Source: a virus
Virus record (IMG/VR): IMGVR_UViG_3300045988_111050
Coordinates: 1-38,818 of that record
Length of the DNA stretch: 38,818 nucleotides
Direction: 5' to 3' (one strand)
Shown here piece by piece: positions 854 through 38,190 of the stretch (the stretch's first letter is position 1; every line of letters begins with the position of its first letter). The translations under genes were made by a program, and so were the position numbers. Below the pieces are notes generated by a model. The model did not search any database. It was not told where the DNA came from and worked only from the letters and a program-made list of their open reading frames with translations.

Positions 854-1639
854 ATGAAAGCGGCTATCTATACAAGGGTGAGTACCTTTGATCAGGCAAA
901 TGGTTACTCACTTGATATGCAGGAAAAACTGGCAACATCTTATTGCCAGCAACACGATATCGAGATATATAAGCATTATTCCGACGAAATTACTGGCGCA
1001 AAGATGGATAGGCCAGCTCTGCGTCGGTTGCTGGAAGATGCGAAGCATCAATGTTTTAACTTTGTAATTGTCCATAAATTGGATAGACTAAGCAGGTCTC
1101 AAAAAGATACCTTGCATATCATTGAGGATATATTTTTAAAAAACGAAATAGCCTTTATCAGTTTGTCCGAAAATTTTGATACCAGGACACCAGTAGGAAA
1201 AGTATTGGTTGGAATGCTTGCTGTATTTGCACAATTTGAAAGAGATCAAATAAGGGAACGAATGCAATTAGGAAAAATAGGGCGAGCATTACAAGGTAAG
1301 CCTATGACCTGGTCACCCCCTTTTTGTCCATTTGGGTATGATTACATTGATGGCCAATATCAAGCCAACGAATATAGTCATTGGATCAGATATATCTTCG
1401 ATCGCTTTTTAATAGGTGATACAATAAACACCATTGCTCACGATATGACTGACAGAAAAGTATTAAATAAAAAATGGTATTACTCAACTGTTAAATGGAT
1501 TTTGAAAAACCCCGTCTATATTGGAAAAATAAGATGGAGAGGTGAACTCTATCAAGGGATGCACTCGCCTATCATTCAGGAAGAAATCTATTATGAAGCA
1601 CAACTCAAAATCCCGACAACAAAAAAGAGCCCCAGCTAG
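854..1639 (+). CDS. Truncated large serine recombinase (resolvase catalytic domain plus recombinase domain, no zinc-ribbon/coiled-coil C-terminus)
   Basis: AIYTRVSTFDQ (catalytic Ser) and VHKLDRLSRS motifs are present, with an AGGAGG RBS. The protein is only 261 aa versus about 450-550 for functional LSRs. Its last codons (KKSPS) run into the lysin terminator hairpin. Confidence 0.8.
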   Translation: MKAAIYTRVSTFDQANGYSLDMQEKLATSYCQQHDIEIYKHYSDEITGAKMDRPALRRLLEDAKHQCFNFVIVHKLDRLSRSQKDTLHIIEDIFLKNEIAFISLSENFDTRTPVGKVLVGMLAVFAQFERDQIRERMQLGKIGRALQGKPMTWSPPFCPFGYDYIDGQYQANEYSHWIRYIFDRFLIGDTINTIAHDMTDRKVLNKKWYYSTVKWILKNPVYIGKIRWRGELYQGMHSPIIQEEIYYEAQLKIPTTKKSPS

Positions 1640-1695: not shown

Positions 1696-1720
1696 CCGCA
1701 GTTTCCGCTGCGGTTTTATT
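1696..1720 (+). terminator. Intrinsic terminator of the plus-strand accessory operon
   Basis: Stem ccgcag/ctgcgg with a 6-nt loop, followed by TTTTATTT. It overlaps the lysin stop codon. Confidence 0.55.
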
Positions 1721-2423
1721 TGCCGAAAGTTTCGACAAATTTTAAAAAGTCCTTGTCAGACAAAGATACCACGGGCAGCTGCAGGCTGTCCCTAAAACTG
1801 TTGACGGTCCCCATATCAGTCAATCCCATATACTTACTGCCGATATAGATTCCAAATCCATATTTTCCATTTTTTAAGATAAAATCTTTATTCAATTCTA
1901 ATTCCTCCAATTTTGTTGTATTTTCTTCTGCTGTTGTCCCATCGAACGGGAGTTCGAACCAGCCTATCAGTTGCTGATCAGGAGCTTGCCAGTTGCCATA
2001 GCCGAACGCCCCATCGGGTGTTAAGGTGTGGGTAACTTTGCGCGTCCAACCACCGACAAATAGTGCGTCTCCATTCCCGTCGATATTTTGCTCGACAGTA
2101 ATTATCGTTCCGTCCGGATTATATCCGGTTGTAAATCCAATATGACCAAATTCATGATATGGCAAGCAGTCTGACACCCACACAGATCCGATAGGTGGTT
2201 TATTCGAGCCATTAAAGTACGTTACCTTAAGACCGAGTTGAGCAGCTCTATACAGACAATCAATAGCATTGACGTAACCAAAATTTAAGTCAAATAACCC
2301 TTGATACTGCAGTACGTTGTCAATTAAGGCCACGCACTGACCGCCATATGGATTCGTCGGTACTGTCACGCGTTGATTGACCAAACTATCCAACTTGTCT
2401 AAAAGTTGTCTTTGTGTCGTCAA
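1716..2423 (-). CDS. Endolysin, N-terminal CHAP (cysteine/histidine amidohydrolase-peptidase) domain plus short C-terminal domain
   Basis: YGGQCVALI (catalytic Cys) and EFGHIGF (His) motifs. TTG start after AGGAGGAGGTG. It is the last gene of the late operon, after the holin-like genes. Confidence 0.85.
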   Translation of the reverse strand: MTTQRQLLDKLDSLVNQRVTVPTNPYGGQCVALIDNVLQYQGLFDLNFGYVNAIDCLYRAAQLGLKVTYFNGSNKPPIGSVWVSDCLPYHEFGHIGFTTGYNPDGTIITVEQNIDGNGDALFVGGWTRKVTHTLTPDGAFGYGNWQAPDQQLIGWFELPFDGTTAEENTTKLEELELNKDFILKNGKYGFGIYIGSKYMGLTDMGTVNSFRDSLQLPVVSLSDKDFLKFVETFGK

Positions 2424-3021: not shown

Positions 3022-3161
3022 AAATCTCCCTTCTTGCTTTCCTTATTTCCGAGGTCGGACAGATTCACCAGCTCGGCTACTTTCGCACGATAGCGTTTTG
3101 GCACTTCTTCAAGGGTGATCCACCCCAAATTGACTTGCATTGCAAAATAATTGATCATCAT
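3018..3161 (-). CDS. Small XkdX-like phage protein (47 aa; ORF-track start at 3212 is probably too long)
   Basis: AGGAGG lies 7 nt before the ATGATG at 3161. The motif GWITLEEVPKRYRAKV is typical of small proteins found before holins. Confidence 0.55.
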   Translation of the reverse strand: MMINYFAMQVNLGWITLEEVPKRYRAKVAELVNLSDLGNKESKKGDL

Positions 3162-3180
3162 TGCTGATCCTCCTTTAATT

Positions 3181-3630
3181 TTATTCTTGATTTGGTTGAT
3201 TAGACGATTCATGTTCTACCTCCTCGCCTGCTTCGTCGGCGGAGTCATCAATACCGCCTGCGATGATTTGATTGAGCGTTAGCGTGACCATTTTGACAAG
3301 CTTACGATTCTCATTCGTAGATTCTTCAGCTTTTGCGATAGCCGCTTCCATTTTGGCCATTAAAGTCTTAGACTCTTTGATAGCTTGATCCATCTCTTCG
3401 ATCTTCTGGACAGATTCCGCCATAGCGCGATCCGAAAATTCGGACTTAAACAGAGCTTCCAAAGCAAGGTCTACCAGCTCTTTCTCGCTCTTGTTCGCAT
3501 GGTCGCCAAAAACTCGCTCAGAGAAGGTTGCGTAACCACTGGAGGTGGACGCGATAGCGATTTCGGTGTGCGAAATCTTGTTATCATCGTCATAAATTGG
3601 ATATTTCCCTACTACAGTCCAGTTTCTCAT
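3181..3630 (-). CDS. Hypothetical phage protein (149 aa) between tail tip and lysis genes
   Basis: Tightly packed ORF with a 4-nt overlap with the upstream gene. No family recognised with confidence. Confidence 0.6.
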   Translation of the reverse strand: MRNWTVVGKYPIYDDDNKISHTEIAIASTSSGYATFSERVFGDHANKSEKELVDLALEALFKSEFSDRAMAESVQKIEEMDQAIKESKTLMAKMEAAIAKAEESTNENRKLVKMVTLTLNQIIAGGIDDSADEAGEEVEHESSNQPNQE

Positions 3631-3824
3631 GGCTCTACCTCGCTTTCTGGTTCTTCTTCTGCGCGTGGTTCGTATGCTTGCGATTGCTTTTCAAGCTCTT
3701 CATTGCGAGTGAGAGCTTGCTCCAGTTGCGCTTGTAGCTCTTCATTTTGAGCTACAAGCGTTGCGATTCTTAATGATTTATTAGCGATTTCGATCGCTAA
3801 ATTATTTTGTATGCTTTCGTTCAT
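3627..3824 (-). CDS. Small coiled-coil protein (65 aa from the ATG at 3824)
   Basis: AAGGAGAAAAAATG RBS/start at 3824. The longer ORF-track start would overlap the Tal stop. Confidence 0.55.
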   Translation of the reverse strand: MNESIQNNLAIEIANKSLRIATLVAQNEELQAQLEQALTRNEELEKQSQAYEPRAEEEPESEVEP

Positions 3825-18960: not shown

Positions 18961-19060
18961 TAAGATAGGCGGGACCGCCGGATGTCGCCCGCATTTCTCG
19001 ACCCACTAGCTAAGTGGCGCGTTGGAGGCGGATACTTTTCAACCTCTATCTTTACTCCAA
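18961..19060 (-). promoter_or_regulatory. GC-rich structured RNA element with P1-like closing helix and antiterminator alternative (attenuator/riboswitch-like)
   Basis: AAGAUAG (19052-19046) pairs with CUAUCUU (18968-18962), enclosing about 77 nt. The enclosed region contains hairpins CCACU/AGUGG and GUCG/CGAC and pairings CCGCC/GGCGG and GCGGG/CCCGC. CUAUCU can instead pair with AGAUAG inside the terminator 5' arm. Confidence 0.35.
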
Positions 19061-19065
19061 GTATA

Positions 19066-20481
19066 TCACATATCATCTTTAGAGTAAAGTATCTTTTGCT
19101 CACGTTTCAATTTATTTAATTTTTGTTTTTTAATTTTGTGATAATGGATGATGTAGTTACCATCATCTTTTTGTATAAGCGCCGCTTCCATTAGATATTT
19201 CAAGCGTTCAGGGACTTTTTTATAGAGCAATACCGAATTGTTATGATGATCAGAATTATCTGCAGTGTAATCTGGATCAGTAACCAATTCTTGTAACAAT
19301 AACATTTGCTCCAACGGAAATTCTGTTCCGTGCTTTTCTAAGATTTTTGCCAAATTCTTACCGGTCACTTGTACACGTTTCAGTAACTCTTCGGTCCCCT
19401 TCACACTTGGCAACTGTCCAATTGTATAGCTCTCCGCAAGACTTTGTTCGATACTCTTGTAAGGTATGTTCCCTTTTGATATATCATCCCACAAATTAGC
19501 AAGATCATCTCTTAACTTTTCAAAGTTATGACCATAAATCTTGACATCGCCATTTAGTTCCTCTTCATCTGGCATCACACCCGACCTACAACCGAAATGA
19601 AAAGGTGGAGCATTTACCCCTACCTGCATTTCGTCAATCAGATACCGCTTGTCTTCCGCATGAATTCTTTTGCAGATTTCAGTTGTCCGATTGTCCAGAT
19701 GAACCAATATTCGATAGTATTTAAGCCCTGCATCCTTGTAACGTTGGATAGCGGAACGATTGACAATCATCGTCCCGTCTGTCCTGACAAGTGTTTCAGC
19801 CCTACTGTTGGCTACTTTGTATCTTTGTGCTAAATCTCTAGCCATCGTGCGCGGGTGATCTCCACGAACAAAACCAGCCTTCAGGACTTTTTTTAAATCC
19901 TTCACTAGATTGTCTGTATTACCCCACAATTGCTGACTGTAGTTATAACCGTTGAACGGAGTTTTCACCAACTCTTTTAGTGCTGGTTCGTTGATGGTAC
20001 CAGTCCGACCGCTCATAGCTTTTTTATAGCCCATGAGTGCCATTTTTTGCAAATAGCTTTCAAACTTATCAGCAATAAGACCTCTTGCGACGCCTGCACG
20101 AAAAAGCATATCCAGCTGCAATGACTCTAATCTTGTCGCGCGTGCAGTTGTGTACTGCTCATTCAGCCTTTTAAGCAATTCTGGGTCTTTCTCGGCTTGC
20201 TCACGATACTTTCTAGCATTCTCCCGATAATCTGACAGGTCGGTGCCTTTCAAGCGTTGCAGCGCCTCCTGATAGCTCATTGCGCCGCTTTCGGAATACT
20301 TGCTAACGAAATCATAAAAGGCTTTTTGCATTTCGTTAGCTTGCTCTTGATAAACCTTGTTTAATTCTGCAAAAAAATCAATATCTTTCCGGTCTAGATA
20401 ACGAAAAATCTCATCTGACCGTTCTGACCAGTAGTCAAGATGGTTTTGATTCGATTTCTTGTTCATCATCGACCACCTCAT
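19066..20481 (-). CDS. MuF/SPP1 gp7-like minor head protein with about 165-aa C-terminal extension (nuclease/toxin-like); real start probably the ATG at 20469 or 20466
   Basis: MuF core motifs: RAETLVRTDG, DNRTTEICKRIHAED, PPFHFGCRSG. It follows the portal gene. An AGGTGG RBS lies inside the first codons. Confidence 0.85.
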   Translation of the reverse strand: MRWSMMNKKSNQNHLDYWSERSDEIFRYLDRKDIDFFAELNKVYQEQANEMQKAFYDFVSKYSESGAMSYQEALQRLKGTDLSDYRENARKYREQAEKDPELLKRLNEQYTTARATRLESLQLDMLFRAGVARGLIADKFESYLQKMALMGYKKAMSGRTGTINEPALKELVKTPFNGYNYSQQLWGNTDNLVKDLKKVLKAGFVRGDHPRTMARDLAQRYKVANSRAETLVRTDGTMIVNRSAIQRYKDAGLKYYRILVHLDNRTTEICKRIHAEDKRYLIDEMQVGVNAPPFHFGCRSGVMPDEEELNGDVKIYGHNFEKLRDDLANLWDDISKGNIPYKSIEQSLAESYTIGQLPSVKGTEELLKRVQVTGKNLAKILEKHGTEFPLEQMLLLQELVTDPDYTADNSDHHNNSVLLYKKVPERLKYLMEAALIQKDDGNYIIHYHKIKKQKLNKLKREQKILYSKDDM

Positions 20482-33551: not shown

Positions 33552-33858
33552 CTAACGCCCGCTCTTCAAATTTGATGTTTTTCAACATCTCGTCGAGCGT
33601 CTCTTTCTTGCTTCTGTACCTATTGCGGGATTTCCATTTGACAAATAAACGAAATCCCTCGTAATTGATAAAGACAATCTTGTGTGTTGGGTTGTCTATG
33701 TACCTTCTAAAGTCTGGGTGTTCTCTCATTTCTTTTGCCCAAACTTTAGCCGTGCTGGGTTTTAAACCCTCCCAAATTTGGCAAAGATGCTCATAGTCAC
33801 CAGCCTCTGCTTTTTCGGATTGATTAGCAGGCCTGTAGACTAATTCCGCTTTTGGCAT
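33544..33858 (-). CDS. Hypothetical early protein (104 aa; excisionase/antirepressor-type position, function unassigned)
   Basis: ORF with a GAGAGG RBS. It is the first gene after the second HTH gene. Confidence 0.55.
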   Translation of the reverse strand: MPKAELVYRPANQSEKAEAGDYEHLCQIWEGLKPSTAKVWAKEMREHPDFRRYIDNPTHKIVFINYEGFRLFVKWKSRNRYRSKKETLDEMLKNIKFEERALVG

Positions 33859-33877
33859 GGCATTTCCTCTCTTTCTG

Positions 33878-33940
33878 TGATATAATTCAGTTAATTATTT
33901 TAGTAAGCGCCTGACTTCTGTTAGGTGCTTTTTTGTTTTA
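33878..33940 (+). ncRNA. Candidate cis-antisense sRNA unit B (TGaTATAAT, ATTTTAG, strong plus-strand-specific terminator, GCTTTTTTGTTTTA)
   Basis: Extended -10 at 33878-33886. Stem 33906-33915/33920-33929 (10 bp, 2 G-U that become C-A on the minus strand). T-run 33929-33934. Confidence 0.45.
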
Positions 33941-34126
33941 TCTTAGTTCATCTATGCTGATTTCTAACGCATCAGCAATTTTCTTAACAGTATCAAAATA
34001 TAAATCTTTCACCTCTCCATCTCTTAAACGATAGATTCCAGCTGGTCCGATACCTGCTTTTAAACAAAGCTTATAAACTGTCCAATTTTTCTCTGAAAGT
34101 TTTTCGGATATTTTTTCCCAAAGCAT
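33938..34126 (-). CDS. XRE-family HTH protein (62 aa)
   Basis: HTH motif WTVYKLCLKAGIGPAGIYRLRDG with C-terminal ADALEISIDEL. AAGGAG RBS. Confidence 0.75.
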   Translation of the reverse strand: MLWEKISEKLSEKNWTVYKLCLKAGIGPAGIYRLRDGEVKDLYFDTVKKIADALEISIDELR

Positions 34127-34165
34127 AGCCGTTTTCTCCTTAATAATTTGATGAAAGTGGGGTAC

Positions 34166-34288
34166 TTACTCTGCTTTTTTTAAAATTTTCAAAATCATTG
34201 AAAGACCACTAACTACTCCAGCTAGATACCCTCGCCCATAGTCTGTCATTAAGAATTTCAATAATTCAATTGCTTCTTCTTCAGTCAT
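34166..34288 (-). CDS. Possible small protein (40 aa), not in the ORF track
   Basis: GGGGGTGAAATATATG start. Translation MTEEEAIELLKFLMTDYGRGYLAGVVSGLSMILKILKKAE. Confidence 0.35.
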   Translation of the reverse strand: MTEEEAIELLKFLMTDYGRGYLAGVVSGLSMILKILKKAE

Positions 34289-34310
34289 ATATTTCACCCC
34301 CTTTCAAATA

Positions 34311-34319
34311 TGGTATAAT
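34311..34319 (+). promoter_or_regulatory. Extended -10 promoter element TGgTATAAT for the 219-aa gene
   Basis: Read directly. It lies 27 nt upstream of the ATG at 34346, with a GGAG RBS in between. Confidence 0.6.
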
Positions 34320-34345
34320 CAAAATAAAAACGATCGGAGAAAAAC

Positions 34346-35005
34346 ATGACTGAAAAGATTTGTTTTATTGTAACTGCCATTGGTGAATCTGGAACACCTA
34401 CCAGAGAACGAGCTGACAACGTATATAGATATCTTATCGCTCCTGTTTGTGAAGAACTTGGTTATAGACCTGTTCGTGTTGATCACGTCAATGCGGTTGA
34501 CAACATCAACGAAACAGTTATAAACTACCTCAAAACTGCCCCTATGGTCATAGCAGATATGACTGAACATAATCCTAATGCGTTTTATGAATTAGGTTTC
34601 AGGCAAGCCCGAGAACTCCCCCTTGTACCAATCATAAAGGTAGGAGAAAGACTTCCTTTCGATGTTATTACAACTCGTACCGTATTCTACGATACCGATG
34701 TGGCAAAAATTGAAGATTCTAAAGAAAATTTGAAATCTAAAATACTAAGTTTTGAAAACTTCGAAATGCCTGAGAGTCGTGCCGAAAGAAGTCTTACACT
34801 TGATGATCTCAATGACAATTTGACCAAAAAGCTAAACAAGATACTAAATCTGTTAGAAAAACAACAGTCTTATTCTTCTTTCACACCAATCAAAGATATA
34901 AAAGTAAAACCGTTTATATCCGAACATCAGTCATTGATTCAACAAGCTCAAGAGATACTCAATCGGACACAGAACCATCCATTATTCCCCGAAGATAAGA
35001 AATAG
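34346..35005 (+). CDS. Hypothetical 219-aa protein, lysogeny-strand moron; N-terminal Rossmann-like alpha/beta domain (NDT/TIR/SLOG-like by pattern), helical C-terminus
   Basis: It is the only plus-strand gene within the minus-strand block and has its own promoter, RBS and terminator. Pattern: KICFIVTAIG...YRPVRVD...PMVIADMTEHNPNAFYELGFRQA...PLVPIIK. Confidence 0.8.
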   Translation: MTEKICFIVTAIGESGTPTRERADNVYRYLIAPVCEELGYRPVRVDHVNAVDNINETVINYLKTAPMVIADMTEHNPNAFYELGFRQARELPLVPIIKVGERLPFDVITTRTVFYDTDVAKIEDSKENLKSKILSFENFEMPESRAERSLTLDDLNDNLTKKLNKILNLLEKQQSYSSFTPIKDIKVKPFISEHQSLIQQAQEILNRTQNHPLFPEDKK

Positions 35006-35111
35006 CTAGCTCTTGCTGACTTTGAAGTTCAATAACCTCAGCAACTTTTTGATTTATAAGTCTAACCGTCCTCAATACTTCATTGAGGGCTGTTTTTTCT
35101 AGTTCGTTCAT
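34959..35111 (-). CDS. Possible small protein (50 aa) following cro, convergently overlapping the 219-aa gene, not in the ORF track
   Basis: AGGAGGATAGCATG start at 35111. Translation MNELEKTALNEVLRTVRLINQKVAEVIELQSQQELAISYLRGIMDGSVSD. Confidence 0.4.
   Translation of the reverse strand: MNELEKTALNEVLRTVRLINQKVAEVIELQSQQELAISYLRGIMDGSVSD
35068..35098 (+). terminator. Intrinsic terminator of the 219-aa gene
   Basis: Stem (gt)cctcaat / attgagg(gc) with loop acttc, followed by TGTTTTTT. There is no U-tract on the minus strand. Confidence 0.7.
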
Positions 35112-35120
35112 GCTATCCTC

Positions 35121-35327
35121 CTACTCAAATTTTTCCCACGACTCGCTGATCCGCAACTTTTTATTGATGCGAAGTTTCAAGTCATCGCTCCCTTTTCCAT
35201 CTTTAAATAGCTGTGTGATGGCTGATGAGCTAACACCAACTACGATAGCTAGGTCAGTTTGCGACCATCCACGTTTATTGATGCGCTCTTTCACAAGCTC
35301 AATCCACTTACGATGTTGTTGGCTCAT
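35121..35327 (-). CDS. Cro-like HTH regulator (68 aa), first gene of the early lytic operon
   Basis: HTH motif WSQTDLAIVVGVSSSAITQLFKDGKG. It diverges from the cI-like gene across the switch region. Confidence 0.8.
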   Translation of the reverse strand: MSQQHRKWIELVKERINKRGWSQTDLAIVVGVSSSAITQLFKDGKGSDDLKLRINKKLRISESWEKFE

Positions 35328-35389
35328 ACACTCTTCTCCTTTCTAACTAGTTTAAAGTTAAAGAGTTAGTAAAATATTTTATAAAACAC

Positions 35390-35418
35390 TTGACAATTTT
35401 AAATAAATAATTTAAAAT
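35390..35418 (+). promoter_or_regulatory. Rightward promoter TTGACA-17-TAAAAT in the genetic switch
   Basis: Hexamers and spacing read directly. The -35 element overlaps TTGTCA on the opposite strand. Confidence 0.6.
35393..35416. promoter_or_regulatory. Operator-like 24-bp repeat copy 1 (ACAATTTTAAATAAATAATTTAAA, containing TTAAAT-N5-ATTTAA)
   Basis: Identical to 35569..35592. Confidence 0.6.
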
Positions 35419-35568
35419 GAAGGCATAATTAAAAACCTTGATAAAACGTTGTATCTATCAATTTTCTTGCTCGCCAAAGCCATTTATTTTTAGATAAGTT
35501 TTAACTTCGTTTTTTACTAACTCATTAACTTACAAAAACTATTTTAAATCATTTATTTAATTTTGTCA

Positions 35569-35592
35569 ACAATTTTAAATAAATAATTTAAA
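35569..35592. promoter_or_regulatory. Operator-like 24-bp repeat copy 2
   Basis: Identical to 35393..35416. It lies 38 nt upstream of the cI-like start. Confidence 0.6.
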
Positions 35593-35629
35593 TATTTTTT
35601 GTCAATCTCCTAGAAAGGTTGATAAAACA

Positions 35630-35983
35630 ATGTTACTAACTTTTGAAAGAATAAAAGAACTTGCAAATAAACAAGGGCTTTCGATAAATGCATTGGAAGA
35701 AAAGCTTGGATATAGCAGAAATACACTCTACTCTTTAAAAAAACAAAAAGCTAGTACAGAAAGAATGCAAGAAATTGCCGACTATTTAAATGTATCTTTG
35801 GATTATTTACTCGGTCGCACAGACAACCCAGCGATAGCAAGTGGTGACACAATCGCAGGATACACGTCTGACGACTTGCGAAAAATGGCAGAAAATGCCA
35901 AGACCTTCGATGGTAAACCACTCACAGAGGCGGACATCGACGCTATCCAAAATATCATTGAGATTTATTTGAGAGGTAGATAG
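35630..35983 (+). CDS. cI-like repressor (XRE HTH, 117 aa)
   Basis: HTH motif LSINALEEKLGYSRNTLYSLKKQK with ADYLNVSLDYLLGRTD. It is followed by an ImmA-like gene. Confidence 0.85.
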   Translation: MLLTFERIKELANKQGLSINALEEKLGYSRNTLYSLKKQKASTERMQEIADYLNVSLDYLLGRTDNPAIASGDTIAGYTSDDLRKMAENAKTFDGKPLTEADIDAIQNIIEIYLRGR

Positions 35984-35986
35984 CTT

Positions 35987-36367
35987 ATGACTATTGAAGA
36001 GCTTGTTGACTCGCACGGCGTTACTCTCGCTTACTTTGATAATGAGCTTTGGCACAGACCAGGCATCTACATCAAAGATATCAATATTATCTTTATAAAT
36101 CGTGAGTTGTCTGAGAACGCCAAAAAACGGGTCATATACCACGAATTAGGACATCTGGATCATTCTGCTGAACTTTATCAAAACAATCGTACTCGATGTG
36201 AAAATGAAGCAAATAGGCACATGATCCATAAGTTGCTCGAAGAAGAGCTTGCAGCATCAGATGACCACAAGTCTTTTAATTATTTACATTTTATGCAAAA
36301 ACACAAATTAAAGACGGTGACAGATGAGTTGATGGTCATTGATGAGTACTACGAATTGATAGGATGA
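35987..36367 (+). CDS. ImmA/IrrE-like zinc metalloprotease (anti-repressor protease)
   Basis: HELGH motif (VIYHELGHLDH), 126 aa, immediately downstream of the repressor. Confidence 0.8.
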   Translation: MTIEELVDSHGVTLAYFDNELWHRPGIYIKDINIIFINRELSENAKKRVIYHELGHLDHSAELYQNNRTRCENEANRHMIHKLLEEELAASDDHKSFNYLHFMQKHKLKTVTDELMVIDEYYELIG

Positions 36368-36371
36368 AAAT

Positions 36372-36917
36372 ATGGACTTCAAAAAAATAAAAGATCTAGC
36401 AAAAACTGCAGTCGATAAGACCGCAGAAGGTATAAGTAAAGCTAACGATATGAGAAAAAAGGCAGCACTAGAAACAAAAATAACTTTACCGGCAAGTAAT
36501 CAATTTTCTAGTCCTACTACTGTTCGAAAAACGGTTGATGGCCAATACTACATTGGTATGTACTCAGAAGAACCTGTGCTTTACGAATTTGAGAACTTTA
36601 GTTTTTCTGGCTCTACAATTATCGAACGTACAACTACTACAGGAAAAACCAAGCAAAAAGGCAAGAAAACTAGTACACTTGCTGGTGCTGCTTTAGGCAC
36701 TGCTTTAGCGCCGGGACTTGGAACGATCGTTGGCGGAATGGTTGGGGCTTCTGGTAAGAAAAAAGGAACCATCAATTCTACATCAGTTACTACACAAGAA
36801 GAAAAACCAGGATCAGCATCGGTATTACTAAGAAATATTGCAACTGGTGAAATCAAAACCATTTCAACTAAATTAACACAAGCGCAAGCAAATAATGTCG
36901 AAAGATTTTTTGAATAA
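36372..36917 (+). CDS. Hypothetical protein with glycine-zipper membrane segment (candidate superinfection-exclusion protein)
   Basis: Segment LAGAALGTALAPGLGTIVGGMVGASG. Its position between the repressor module and the integrase is typical of sie/ltp-type genes. Confidence 0.65.
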   Translation: MDFKKIKDLAKTAVDKTAEGISKANDMRKKAALETKITLPASNQFSSPTTVRKTVDGQYYIGMYSEEPVLYEFENFSFSGSTIIERTTTTGKTKQKGKKTSTLAGAALGTALAPGLGTIVGGMVGASGKKKGTINSTSVTTQEEKPGSASVLLRNIATGEIKTISTKLTQAQANNVERFFE

Positions 36918-37038: not shown

Positions 37039-38190
37039 ATGTGGATGGAAGAACTTGCAAACGGAAAATATAAATTTTTTGAGCGCTACAAAGATCCCTA
37101 CACTGAAAAGCGGAAAAGAGTATCTGTGACTCTCGACTCAGGATCGGCAAGAGCAAAAAAAGAAGCTCAGAAGCTTTTAGATGAGAAGATAGATAAGGTT
37201 ATTCAGAAACTTTCGACATCAGATAGATTGTTTGCTGATTTGTTGGATGAATGGTGGACCTTCTACCAAAGGAGCGTAAGGCGGTCTAGTGTCCGGGCTC
37301 GTAAACCAGCGTACAAAAGATTATTAAAAGACTTTGCCTCGAACGTTCCGATACGCAATATTGATGTTGCTTATGTTAAAAAATATATTGCAAATTCCGA
37401 CTACACAGCTTCCCAACTCAATCATATCAAAGCTGTTTTAAATGGAGTTTTTGATTATGCCCAGGAACTAAAAATTATAAACGATAACCCAGCTCGAGCA
37501 ACTACGCTCCCTAAGCGCATTTTAACGCTGGACGATATAAAAACAATCAGTGAAAAGTACCTGGAACCTGAAGAACTCAACTCGCTTTTGAAAGAATTAT
37601 ACAGAACCCCCCGAACCTATAGAGCAGGGCTACTCGCTGAATTTATGTCTTTGAACGGCTGCCGCATTGGCGAAGCTGTAGCTATCGAAAAACACAATTT
37701 TCACCGAGAAAGTAGAGAATTGGATATACACGGGACATTAGATAGCATTGATAAAAACGCTAAGAAAGAACTAACGAAAACTCTATCAAGCTACCGCACG
37801 ACTAATCTGACTAACCGAGAAAAAGAGATTATAGATGAATTTATCAAGCTAAATGACCTAGCCAAAAACACGGATCCAAATTGGCCTGATACAGACTACA
37901 TTTTTCTCAACAATCAAGGAAAGCCAATACAGCGAAACGCTTTTAACATTACCCTGCAGAAAGCCAATCAGAGATTGGATAAGCCGATTAATAAGCCCCT
38001 CAGCTCCCACATCTTTAGGCACACCTTAATTAGTATGCTTGCTGAAAGAAACATACCTGTAAAAGCCATTATGGCCAGAGTCGGACACAAAGACTCTAAA
38101 ACCACCATGCAAATCTACACCCATGTCACAAAAAGTATGAAAACGAATATAGAGAATATTTTAGATGCGATTGCCAATGACAGAAAGTAA
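37039..38190 (+). CDS. int: Tyrosine integrase
   Basis: C-terminal catalytic motifs LNGCRIGEAVAI (Arg), HIFRHTLISML (HxxR) and GHKDSKTTMQIYTHV (His...Tyr). GAGGTG RBS. Confidence 0.95.
   Translation: MWMEELANGKYKFFERYKDPYTEKRKRVSVTLDSGSARAKKEAQKLLDEKIDKVIQKLSTSDRLFADLLDEWWTFYQRSVRRSSVRARKPAYKRLLKDFASNVPIRNIDVAYVKKYIANSDYTASQLNHIKAVLNGVFDYAQELKIINDNPARATTLPKRILTLDDIKTISEKYLEPEELNSLLKELYRTPRTYRAGLLAEFMSLNGCRIGEAVAIEKHNFHRESRELDIHGTLDSIDKNAKKELTKTLSSYRTTNLTNREKEIIDEFIKLNDLAKNTDPNWPDTDYIFLNNQGKPIQRNAFNITLQKANQRLDKPINKPLSSHIFRHTLISMLAERNIPVKAIMARVGHKDSKTTMQIYTHVTKSMKTNIENILDAIANDRK

Follow-up and report, generated by a model that had tools for sequence, protein, structure and literature searches.

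What is a single gene doing on the plus strand of a lytic operon that is otherwise read from the minus strand? The question is raised by the IMG/VR virus record IMGVR_UViG_3300045988_111050 (positions 1 to 38,818; this whole 38,818-nt stretch is called the window below), a mosaic temperate phage of mitis-group streptococci of the prophage type, in which the open reading frame (ORF) at 34346-35005 is the sole credible plus-strand gene within the minus-strand lytic block. It is a real gene under purifying selection, and its relatives are far more numerous than chance would allow. On balance, and with modest confidence, we read it as the cargo of an exchangeable defence-cassette slot of mitis-group prophages, the predicted product most likely being a single-protein, abortive-type immune effector. 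This reading starts from the anatomy of the locus, its homology and the shared slot, from which we infer the activity, trigger, substrate, expression pattern and phenotype of the product. The locus contains the following elements.

34294..34342, plus strand: conserved left flank, which carries the cassette promoter and, on the minus strand, the ribosome-binding site (RBS; AAAGGGGGTG) of the next small lytic ORF
34311..34319, plus strand: extended -10 element TGGTATAAT, read directly from the sequence
34336..34339, plus strand: GGAG RBS, 6 nt 5′ of the ATG
34346..35005, plus strand: cassette gene of 219 amino acids (aa) with an ATG start, homologue of SM1 gp11 (phrog_3634), encoding a nucleoside 2-deoxyribosyltransferase (NDT)/DNPH1-like domain and a helical tail
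35068..35098, plus strand: intrinsic terminator specific to this strand, a hairpin at 35068-35090 followed by TGTTTTTTCT
34959..35111, minus strand: small lytic-strand ORF of 50 aa (SM1 gp10, phrog_20017) with an AGGAGG RBS, forming the conserved right flank
34166..34297, minus strand: small lytic-strand ORF of about 40 aa (phrog_4791)

An initial annotation of this DNA had described the 219-aa ORF, its extended -10 element and GGAG RBS, a terminator acting on the plus strand only, and a minus-strand ORF with a strong AGGAGG RBS that overlaps the 3′ end of the gene by 47 nt. All of these were found at the positions given above. The extended -10 element is invariant in an alignment of the window with SM1 and Spn1. 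Its -35 hexamer (ATTTCA, 34291-34296) matches the consensus at 3/6 positions, and this weakness explains why a two-hexamer promoter scan missed the cassette promoter. A T-tract lies after the terminator hairpin on the plus strand, and on the minus strand the hairpin has no U-tract behind it. Both flanking lytic-strand ORFs are interlocked with the cassette. The start and RBS of ORF 34166..34297 overlap the -35 region of the cassette promoter, while the terminator sits within the 5′ coding part of ORF 34959..35111, the C-terminal codons of which run antisense to the last 47 nt of the cassette gene. Rfam detected no RNA family within the cassette.

With its own promoter and a one-way terminator, the gene could be expressed from the repressor strand without any need for lytic-operon transcription. 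The repressor/cro switch carries a 24-nt operator repeat that was not found at the cassette promoter; we therefore rejected control of this promoter by cI, and expression would be independent of the switch. On the minus strand, no terminator-like site was found from cro to 33500, so that lytic transcription would be expected to proceed antisense through the cassette gene.

The same promoter is found in front of other genes in related phages. By megablast, just the segment from ~34294 to 35126 is common to the window and SM1, IPP5 and several Javan prophages. Roughly 20 pneumophages with a different cargo in place of the gene have the 49-nt promoter piece (34294-34342) at about 96% identity, and the exact 28-nt promoter core was present in 43 other IMG/VR contigs of streptococcal phages. 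Downstream of the promoter and GGAG, four unrelated cargo families were found.

Cargo 1, 18 copies: zinc-ribbon protein of 219-232 aa with a weak DUF4145 match (E 1e-3), as in locus L002 at 3053-3742 (Spn1 AHN84592.1), L012, L052 and others
Cargo 2, 14 copies: the NDT-like family, including a divergent 231-aa paralogue
Cargo 3, 9 copies: zinc-finger plus DUF4145 protein
Cargo 4, 3 copies: membrane/coiled-coil protein of 197 aa with an N-terminal transmembrane (TM) segment (L013, L020, L035)

The zinc-finger plus DUF4145 cargo is a full-length match to the PADLOC model PD-T7-4 (8.7e-69), which corresponds to RAZR, an RNase characterised by experiment that acts in abortive infection and is activated by phage proteins via ring assembly (PMC13017515). 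Because a validated defence gene thus lies behind an identical promoter in sister phages, the slot can be regarded as an exchangeable defence cassette site. The proposal that the gene is a promoter-plus-terminator moron at a defence site is thereby supported: the locus combines its own promoter and terminator, an orientation independent of the lytic operon and a validated defence gene among its alternative cargos, the identical promoter driving PD-T7-4/RAZR homologues in other phages. A second antisense gene within the early operon of SM1, gp7, matched PD-T7-4 as well. By position, the zinc-ribbon and TM/coiled-coil cargos are candidate defence genes. A protein shared between the window and Spn1-type phages was considered and rejected, as no homology was detected between the window protein and the Spn1-type cargo; the common element is the slot.

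On the right flank, the small ORF (beginning MNELE(K/R)TALNE...) and its internal terminator hairpin remain in place with the NDT-like cargos as well as with the zinc-ribbon ones. In every case this ORF overlaps the cargo 3′ end by 44-50 nt, and its N-terminal 26 aa are common across cargo types (phrog_4488, phrog_6249). The conserved promoter and the terminator/small gene could serve as recombination arms for cassette exchange. The DNA encoding the 26 conserved residues doubles as the plus-strand terminator in the window, L002, L012, L021 and others, the terminator stem showing one compensatory change in L032. The C-terminus of the small protein is set by whichever cargo overlaps it, and selection may act on the protein, the hairpin or both.

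This arrangement also bears on a first alternative, to which we assign a low probability, namely that the gene is part of an addiction or toxin module in which an NDT-like toxin is checked by the opposite-strand 50-aa ORF or by the antisense lytic transcript and promotes prophage stabilisation or lysogen fitness. The convergent overlap with the small ORF is kept in two different cargo families, members of the family often lie among toxin-antitoxin (TA) modules, and NDT-like effectors are toxic when released. However, the small ORF has the same conserved N-terminal part whichever unrelated cargo it accompanies, which makes a cargo-specific antitoxin unlikely. In addition, the small ORF belongs to the lytic operon, presumed silent in lysogens, and the distant homologues have no conserved neighbour that could act as a partner.

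Relatives of the cassette protein were collected by a full HMMER scan over 1.84 billion cluster representatives (50%-identity clusters), which returned 14,608 representatives at E<=1e-3 and 5,215 at E<=1e-10. The matched stretch was almost always residues 1 to about 140, in proteins from 140 to >600 aa long, indicating an enzyme-like domain that is conserved at the N-terminus and followed by C-terminal parts that vary. In the 12 phage copies, the pooled Nei-Gojobori ratio of nonsynonymous to synonymous substitution rates (dN/dS) was 0.11 for residues 1-140. The protein was divided accordingly.

34346..34765, plus strand: residues 1-140, NDT/DNPH1/TIR-class Rossmann-like domain
34766..34876, plus strand: residues 141-177, linker and long predicted helix, with P142 and L152 conserved across the wider family
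34877..34975, plus strand: residues 178-210, hypervariable helical tail of low model confidence, a candidate specificity or sensor segment

Pfam PF05014 (Nuc_deoxyrib_tr) was matched by 23 of 66 diverse relatives at E<=0.01, one of which (P0167) exceeded the Pfam threshold with 34.4 bits against a cut-off of 28.8. TIR models matched just two of the 66, and weakly (TIR_2, 0.0021; CAP12-PCTIR_TIR, 0.0066), and the query itself had no Pfam TIR match. A clostridial subfamily fused to a winged helix-turn-helix (wHTH) domain carries a precomputed PF05014 assignment and belongs to the same family according to hhalign (probability 100%, E 1.4e-50). As judged from sequence, the protein is thus an NDT at the superfamily level, by transitivity, and not a canonical NDT, and its family is closer to NDT/DNPH1 than to TIR or SLOG. 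When the protein alone was compared with PDB sequences, nothing beyond coiled-coil noise and marginal matches to Rcl was obtained, and the only enzymes matched by family profiles were Rcl/DNPH1 (E 0.015-0.08), a trypanosomal NDT and the CMP hydrolase MilB. In the profile alignment, Glu82 of the YELG motif is paired with its counterpart in the YELG of Rcl, the catalytic nucleophile of that enzyme.

Residues invariant across phyla in alignments of 66 and 63 sequences were C6, F7, I12, G13, R20, R22, R44, D46, D71, N76-P-N78, F80, Y81, E82, R86, P104-F-D106 and R111. The intact acidic pair Asp71 (codon 34556-34558) and Glu82 (codon 34589-34591), together with the many arginines, would fit a hydrolase of a phosphorylated nucleotide. 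The peptide motifs and the E82 residue quoted in the initial annotation were correct. Its suggested resemblance to NDT-like, TIR-like and SLOG domains held for NDT, on the strength of the PF05014 matches, the structural matches described below and the position of E82 on the Rcl Glu, and was narrowed with respect to TIR and SLOG. An antirepressor, Cro or another core phage function, homology to which would have spoken against a defence role, was rejected, since Pfam, PHROG, PADLOC and NCBIfam gave no such match.

An AlphaFold 2 (AF2) model built from the 63-sequence alignment had predicted local distance difference test (pLDDT) values mostly of 75-95 in the N-terminal domain and poor values after residue 145. 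When the model was searched with Foldseek, as had been proposed, TIR domains (TcpB, TIR-STING, SARM1), NDTs and DNPH1 were recovered at E-values of about 1e-4 to 1e-3. For a Chroococcidiopsis NDT and DNPH1, the template modelling score normalised to the target was 0.5-0.67 (E about 1e-3). The model has a three-layer alpha/beta fold with the parallel sheet of the NDT/DNPH1 type, and it resembles TcpB, SARM1 and TIR-STING about as closely as it resembles NDT. NDT matches were again obtained in BFVD, the library of viral structures, where a phage protein called 'CMP/hydroxymethyl CMP hydrolase' was the best hit.

Most homologues are chromosomal, and we read 11 loci of distant chromosomal homologues. 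About seven of the 11 lay among TA pairs, AbiE, Schlafen-like ATPases, TIR_2, SIR2_2, DUF1156/DUF499, RHS toxins, insertion sequence elements and integrases. No neighbour gene recurred across the 11 loci, and the protein therefore appears to work alone. Relatives also carry fusions or extensions with wHTH, pentapeptide-repeat or AbiEi-like parts. A link to CBASS via N-terminally extended relatives (P0167) was considered and rejected, as these are Clostridia wHTH-NDT fusions that are not CD-NTase-associated. In L053-L055, the members of this clostridial subfamily share a small variable island with genes for KilA-N and DUF6119 proteins; the island is located between phosphotransferase system (PTS)/antiterminator genes and pyruvate formate-lyase. 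Two distant homologues from unrelated metagenomes (L004 and L058) both adjoin an LptF/LptG pair, a neighbourhood that may be a recurrent insertion site.

These distributions bear on two further alternatives. According to the first, which we consider unlikely, the product is a counter-defence or host-takeover enzyme that destroys an immune signal (a messenger of the cyclic ADP-ribose type or a cyclic nucleotide) or rewires NAD or nucleotide pools. The NDT/TIR-class fold does act on NAD-derived and nucleotide substrates, and the gene is carried by phages and occurs widely among phage contigs. Nevertheless, the repressor-strand orientation, private promoter and terminator argue for expression in the lysogen rather than in the lytic cycle, the gene is interchangeable with RAZR, an abortive-infection defence gene, and most of its homologues reside on chromosomes, several of them in defence or TA islands.

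We hold it equally improbable that the gene is a metabolic moron for nucleotide salvage or sanitation, encoding a true deoxyribosyltransferase or a DNPH1/MilB-like hydrolase of unusual nucleotides; in a defensive variant of this idea, the enzyme would selectively hydrolyse modified deoxynucleoside monophosphates (dNMPs) needed by hypermodified phages. In some sources, 'CMP/hydroxymethyl CMP hydrolase' or 'nucleoside 2-deoxyribosyltransferase' is the name given to close relatives, the top PDB sequence matches are DNPH1/Rcl, and some homologues are found among housekeeping genes. On the other hand, the variable helical C-terminal extensions and the wHTH, pentapeptide-repeat and AbiEi-like fusions are atypical of metabolic NDTs, the sporadic distribution is tied to mobile elements, the slot is held in common with RAZR, and the query itself matches no canonical NDT model.

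The C-terminal part is helical, with a hypervariable tail. AF2 predicts helices at residues 119-134, 152-178 and 191-210, with pLDDT <50 at residues 173-194, and the C-terminal part gave weak, coiled-coil-type noise matches in PDB. Among 119 close homologues, column entropy was 1.2-1.3 bits at residues 181-210 as compared with about 0.1 bit in the enzyme domain. In the 12 phage copies, dN/dS reached 0.86 for residues 178-204, a pooled value that cannot separate diversifying pressure from relaxed constraint. The orthologue SM1 gp11 (NP_862850.1; 83% identity over 219 aa) shares the position, orientation and small flanking ORFs of the window gene and differs from its product mainly at residues 178-210; like phrog_3634, which the query joins at E 4e-78 and which PHROG lists as 'unknown function', it is annotated as just a hypothetical protein. 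The variability of the tail could mark a specificity-determining sensor under diversifying pressure. In the same 12 copies, the synonymous rate dS was about 0.70 in the N-terminal domain, about 0.18 at residues 141-177 and about 0.18 at residues 205-219; this drop suggests recombination breakpoints within the gene or constraint from the antisense overlap.

How does the protein compare with known defence systems? The initial annotation had proposed a PADLOC search, which identified the CBASS effector model PDLC00733 (labelled TIR) at 1.4e-17, residues 20-137 of the window protein aligning with positions 256-375 of the 388-position profile. The model was matched by all 66 relatives tested (best E 3.9e-25). 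By this homology, the catalytic module already has a catalogue entry, as the domain that does the killing in a signalling defence system. The enzymatic domains of PDLC00733 and the window protein are homologous, but the former is C-terminal to about 250 further residues whereas the latter is N-terminal. To look for partner genes, we ran Pfam over the 10 largest ORFs, apart from the cassette gene, that lie in the early, replication and lysogeny regions or at the left end of the window. No SMODS/CD-NTase domain was found in these 10 ORFs or in the 11 homologue contexts, as CBASS would require. The 10 ORFs likewise contained no reverse transcriptase (RT) domain, Rfam returned a skipping-rope RNA alone, and no PADLOC retron-effector model was matched by the window protein or the 66 relatives, so that a retron was not recognised. 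Nor was a ThsA-like partner, as in Thoeris, found in the 10 ORFs or conserved beside the homologues; a host-encoded Thoeris partner elsewhere is possible. It is very improbable, in our estimate, that the protein is an orphan generator of a ThsB-like messenger that on infection activates an effector encoded elsewhere in the host: TIR fold similarity and the one distant homologue that adjoins a 790-aa TIR_2 protein speak for it, but no effector partner is encoded by the 10 ORFs or conserved beside homologues, the sequence affinity is to NDT/DNPH1 over TIR (23 members match NDT models versus 2 for TIR), and a mobile cassette dependent on a host-encoded partner would be fragile.

By way of precedent, the NDT-like effector of retron-Ec86 (Eco1) depletes NAD+/adenine nucleotides on activation and is toxic when released. 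Like the predicted cassette product, it uses an NDT-like N-glycosidase-type domain as a toxic abortive-infection effector, with an active form that depends on the dimer or oligomer state. Its DNA-binding lobe is caged by RT and multicopy single-stranded DNA (RT-msDNA), whereas the window protein stands alone with a short hypervariable helical tail. With DNPH1/Rcl, MilB and the classical NDTs, the window protein shares the alpha/beta fold, an acidic residue ending strand 4 and a Glu (catalytic in those enzymes) in a [Y/F]-E-[L/I]-G helix cap, and its loop after strand 1 (GxxGxxxRxRxD) resembles the 5′-phosphate loop of Rcl. In contrast to these enzymes, it adds an invariant NPN motif, a set of arginines and a coiled-coil-like C-terminal extension, and the context of its family is mobile and defence-linked, not metabolic. 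RAZR/PD-T7-4, which occupies the promoter-defined slot in sister prophages, is also a single-gene system (about 220-236 aa) and causes abortive infection through oligomer assembly triggered by phage proteins. There is no sequence similarity between the two, the window protein having neither a zinc finger nor HEPN, and RAZR cleaves RNA whereas N-glycosidic cleavage of a nucleotide is predicted for the window protein. Nucleotide-degrading immune effectors and prophage defence hot spots are established concepts. In the literature searched, only retron NDT effectors and RAZR were returned, and neither a stand-alone NDT-like defence gene nor this cassette slot was described; to our knowledge, NDT-like domains have so far been recognised as nucleotide-depleting defence effectors in retrons or CBASS alone.

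If the gene is indeed the cargo of a defence slot, the protein would be made constitutively in the lysogen and held inactive. A component of a superinfecting phage might then be sensed via the variable helical tail, probably by way of an altered oligomeric state; in NDT-type enzymes, active sites span dimer interfaces. Once activated, the enzyme would cleave the N-glycosidic bond of a phosphorylated nucleotide, which may be NAD+, for which there is precedent, or the pool of dNMPs/nucleoside monophosphates (NMPs) or nucleoside triphosphates (NTPs), and this would starve the invader of a key metabolite. Upon prophage induction, transcription from the cro promoter would run antisense through the gene, lower its expression and thereby spare the lytic cycle of the prophage itself.

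Several observations weigh against this interpretation. The query protein had no PF05014 match even at E<=1 and no NCBIfam match, and Pfam gave just sub-threshold hits to DUF6376 and DUF4083. The PDB sequence matches are marginal (E 0.015-0.5), the Foldseek E-values are no better than about 1e-4, and the 'TIR' label of PDLC00733 is the library's own. Three or four of the 11 distant loci are solitary among housekeeping genes, one locus being mixed in character, making a non-immune role possible for part of the family. Relaxed constraint, and not an arms race, could account for the near-neutral dN/dS of the tail. Finally, a constitutively expressed hydrolase would have to be kept harmless by some further means. 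Taking both sides together, the view that the gene is a lysogeny-oriented moron with an NDT/TIR/SLOG-like defence domain stands in its anatomy, fold and defence slot and is, overall, a well-founded hypothesis.

More tentatively, the protein may represent a very large unnamed family of partner-free immune enzymes, comprising at least 14,600 clusters at 50% identity from bacterial phyla and phages, in which a DNPH1/NDT-like N-glycosidase is combined with a fast-evolving helical sensor tail, possibly with a new substrate or trigger logic. For example, the enzyme might selectively destroy modified nucleotides or a nucleotide pool once a phage protein induces its assembly. In streptococcal prophages, the enzyme would be swapped with RAZR by recombination between the conserved promoter and the terminator embedded in the small lytic gene, and its silencing by antisense lytic transcription would provide built-in self-tolerance of the prophage.

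The surrounding phage is organised as follows.

37039-38190, plus strand: integrase
35987-36367, plus strand: ImmA-like metalloprotease, on the strand of the cassette gene (SM1 annotation)
35630-35983, plus strand: ImmR-like repressor, on the strand of the cassette gene (SM1 annotation)
35393..35592, no strand assigned: switch region with three copies of a 24-nt operator-like repeat and two promoter-like sites
35121..35327, minus strand: Cro-like helix-turn-helix (HTH) gene, the first of the lytic operon (HTH_3, phrog_1468)
33938..34126, minus strand: second small HTH gene of the early operon (HTH_26, E 5.6e-12)

From the cro-like gene leftwards, the minus strand carries early, replication, packaging, structural and lysis genes. 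The statement that every gene in the block 1716-35327 other than the cassette gene is on the minus strand held for credible genes; greedy ORF tiling also placed a few gap ORFs of 43-74 aa outside this rule. Similarly, the cassette gene had been described as wedged between two HTH genes, and both are present at 35121..35327 and 33938..34126, but two small minus-strand ORFs intervene, so the flanking is not direct. For the right-hand 25 kb, the best GenBank phage matches covered no more than about 28% of that length.

An ImmAR-type lysogeny switch has been described for pneumococcal prophages (PMC12637031). In the window, copies of the operator-like repeat (ACAATTTTAAATAAATAATTTAAA) lie at 35393-35416, 35538-35561 and 35569-35592, positioned on the switch promoters. 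The repressor-ward promoter is a plus-strand TTGACA-17-TAAAAT at 35390-35418 and the cro-ward promoter a minus-strand TTGACA-17-TAAAAT at 35569-35541; within the switch (35376-35605), the two apparently face each other, with a predicted transcript overlap of about 150 nt. Between the ImmA-like gene and the integrase, a 181-aa ORF (36372-36917, plus strand) with a Gly-rich hydrophobic segment (GAALGTALAPGLGTIVGGMVGA) sits where pneumococcal prophages have their szaL/spaL/thaL lysogeny cargo genes. It had no match in Pfam or PADLOC and may be a second lysogen-expressed cargo. Near the cassette, an extended -10 promoter-like site (33857-33886, plus strand; ATGGCA-18-TATAAT with TG) is followed after 20 nt by a strong terminator acting on the plus strand only (33905-33930 and a T-tract). 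This pair (33857-33940), located in the gap between two minus-strand early genes, may produce a very short antisense RNA or be a remnant or insulator of another plus-strand cassette. The skipping-rope RNA (Rfam RF02924) lies at 18961-19053 on the minus strand, scoring 49 bits against a gathering score of 36.7, directly 3′ of a 471-aa minus-strand ORF (19066-20481). At the far left end, beyond a CHAP-domain lysin (1716-2423, minus strand), a 261-aa serine recombinase with Resolvase and Recombinase domains (854-1636, plus strand) may be part of a neighbouring element or a truncated second recombinase.

If the defence reading of the cassette gene is confirmed, it would give an immune function and a name to one of the larger unannotated prokaryotic protein families, and a stand-alone NDT-like enzyme would join the repertoire of nucleotide-depleting defences. 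It would also define, in oral and pneumococcal prophages, a compact cassette slot delimited by its promoter, where more defence genes could be sought. The antisense placement of the gene within the early lytic operon offers a simple, testable model for how a prophage may escape its own defence gene on induction.

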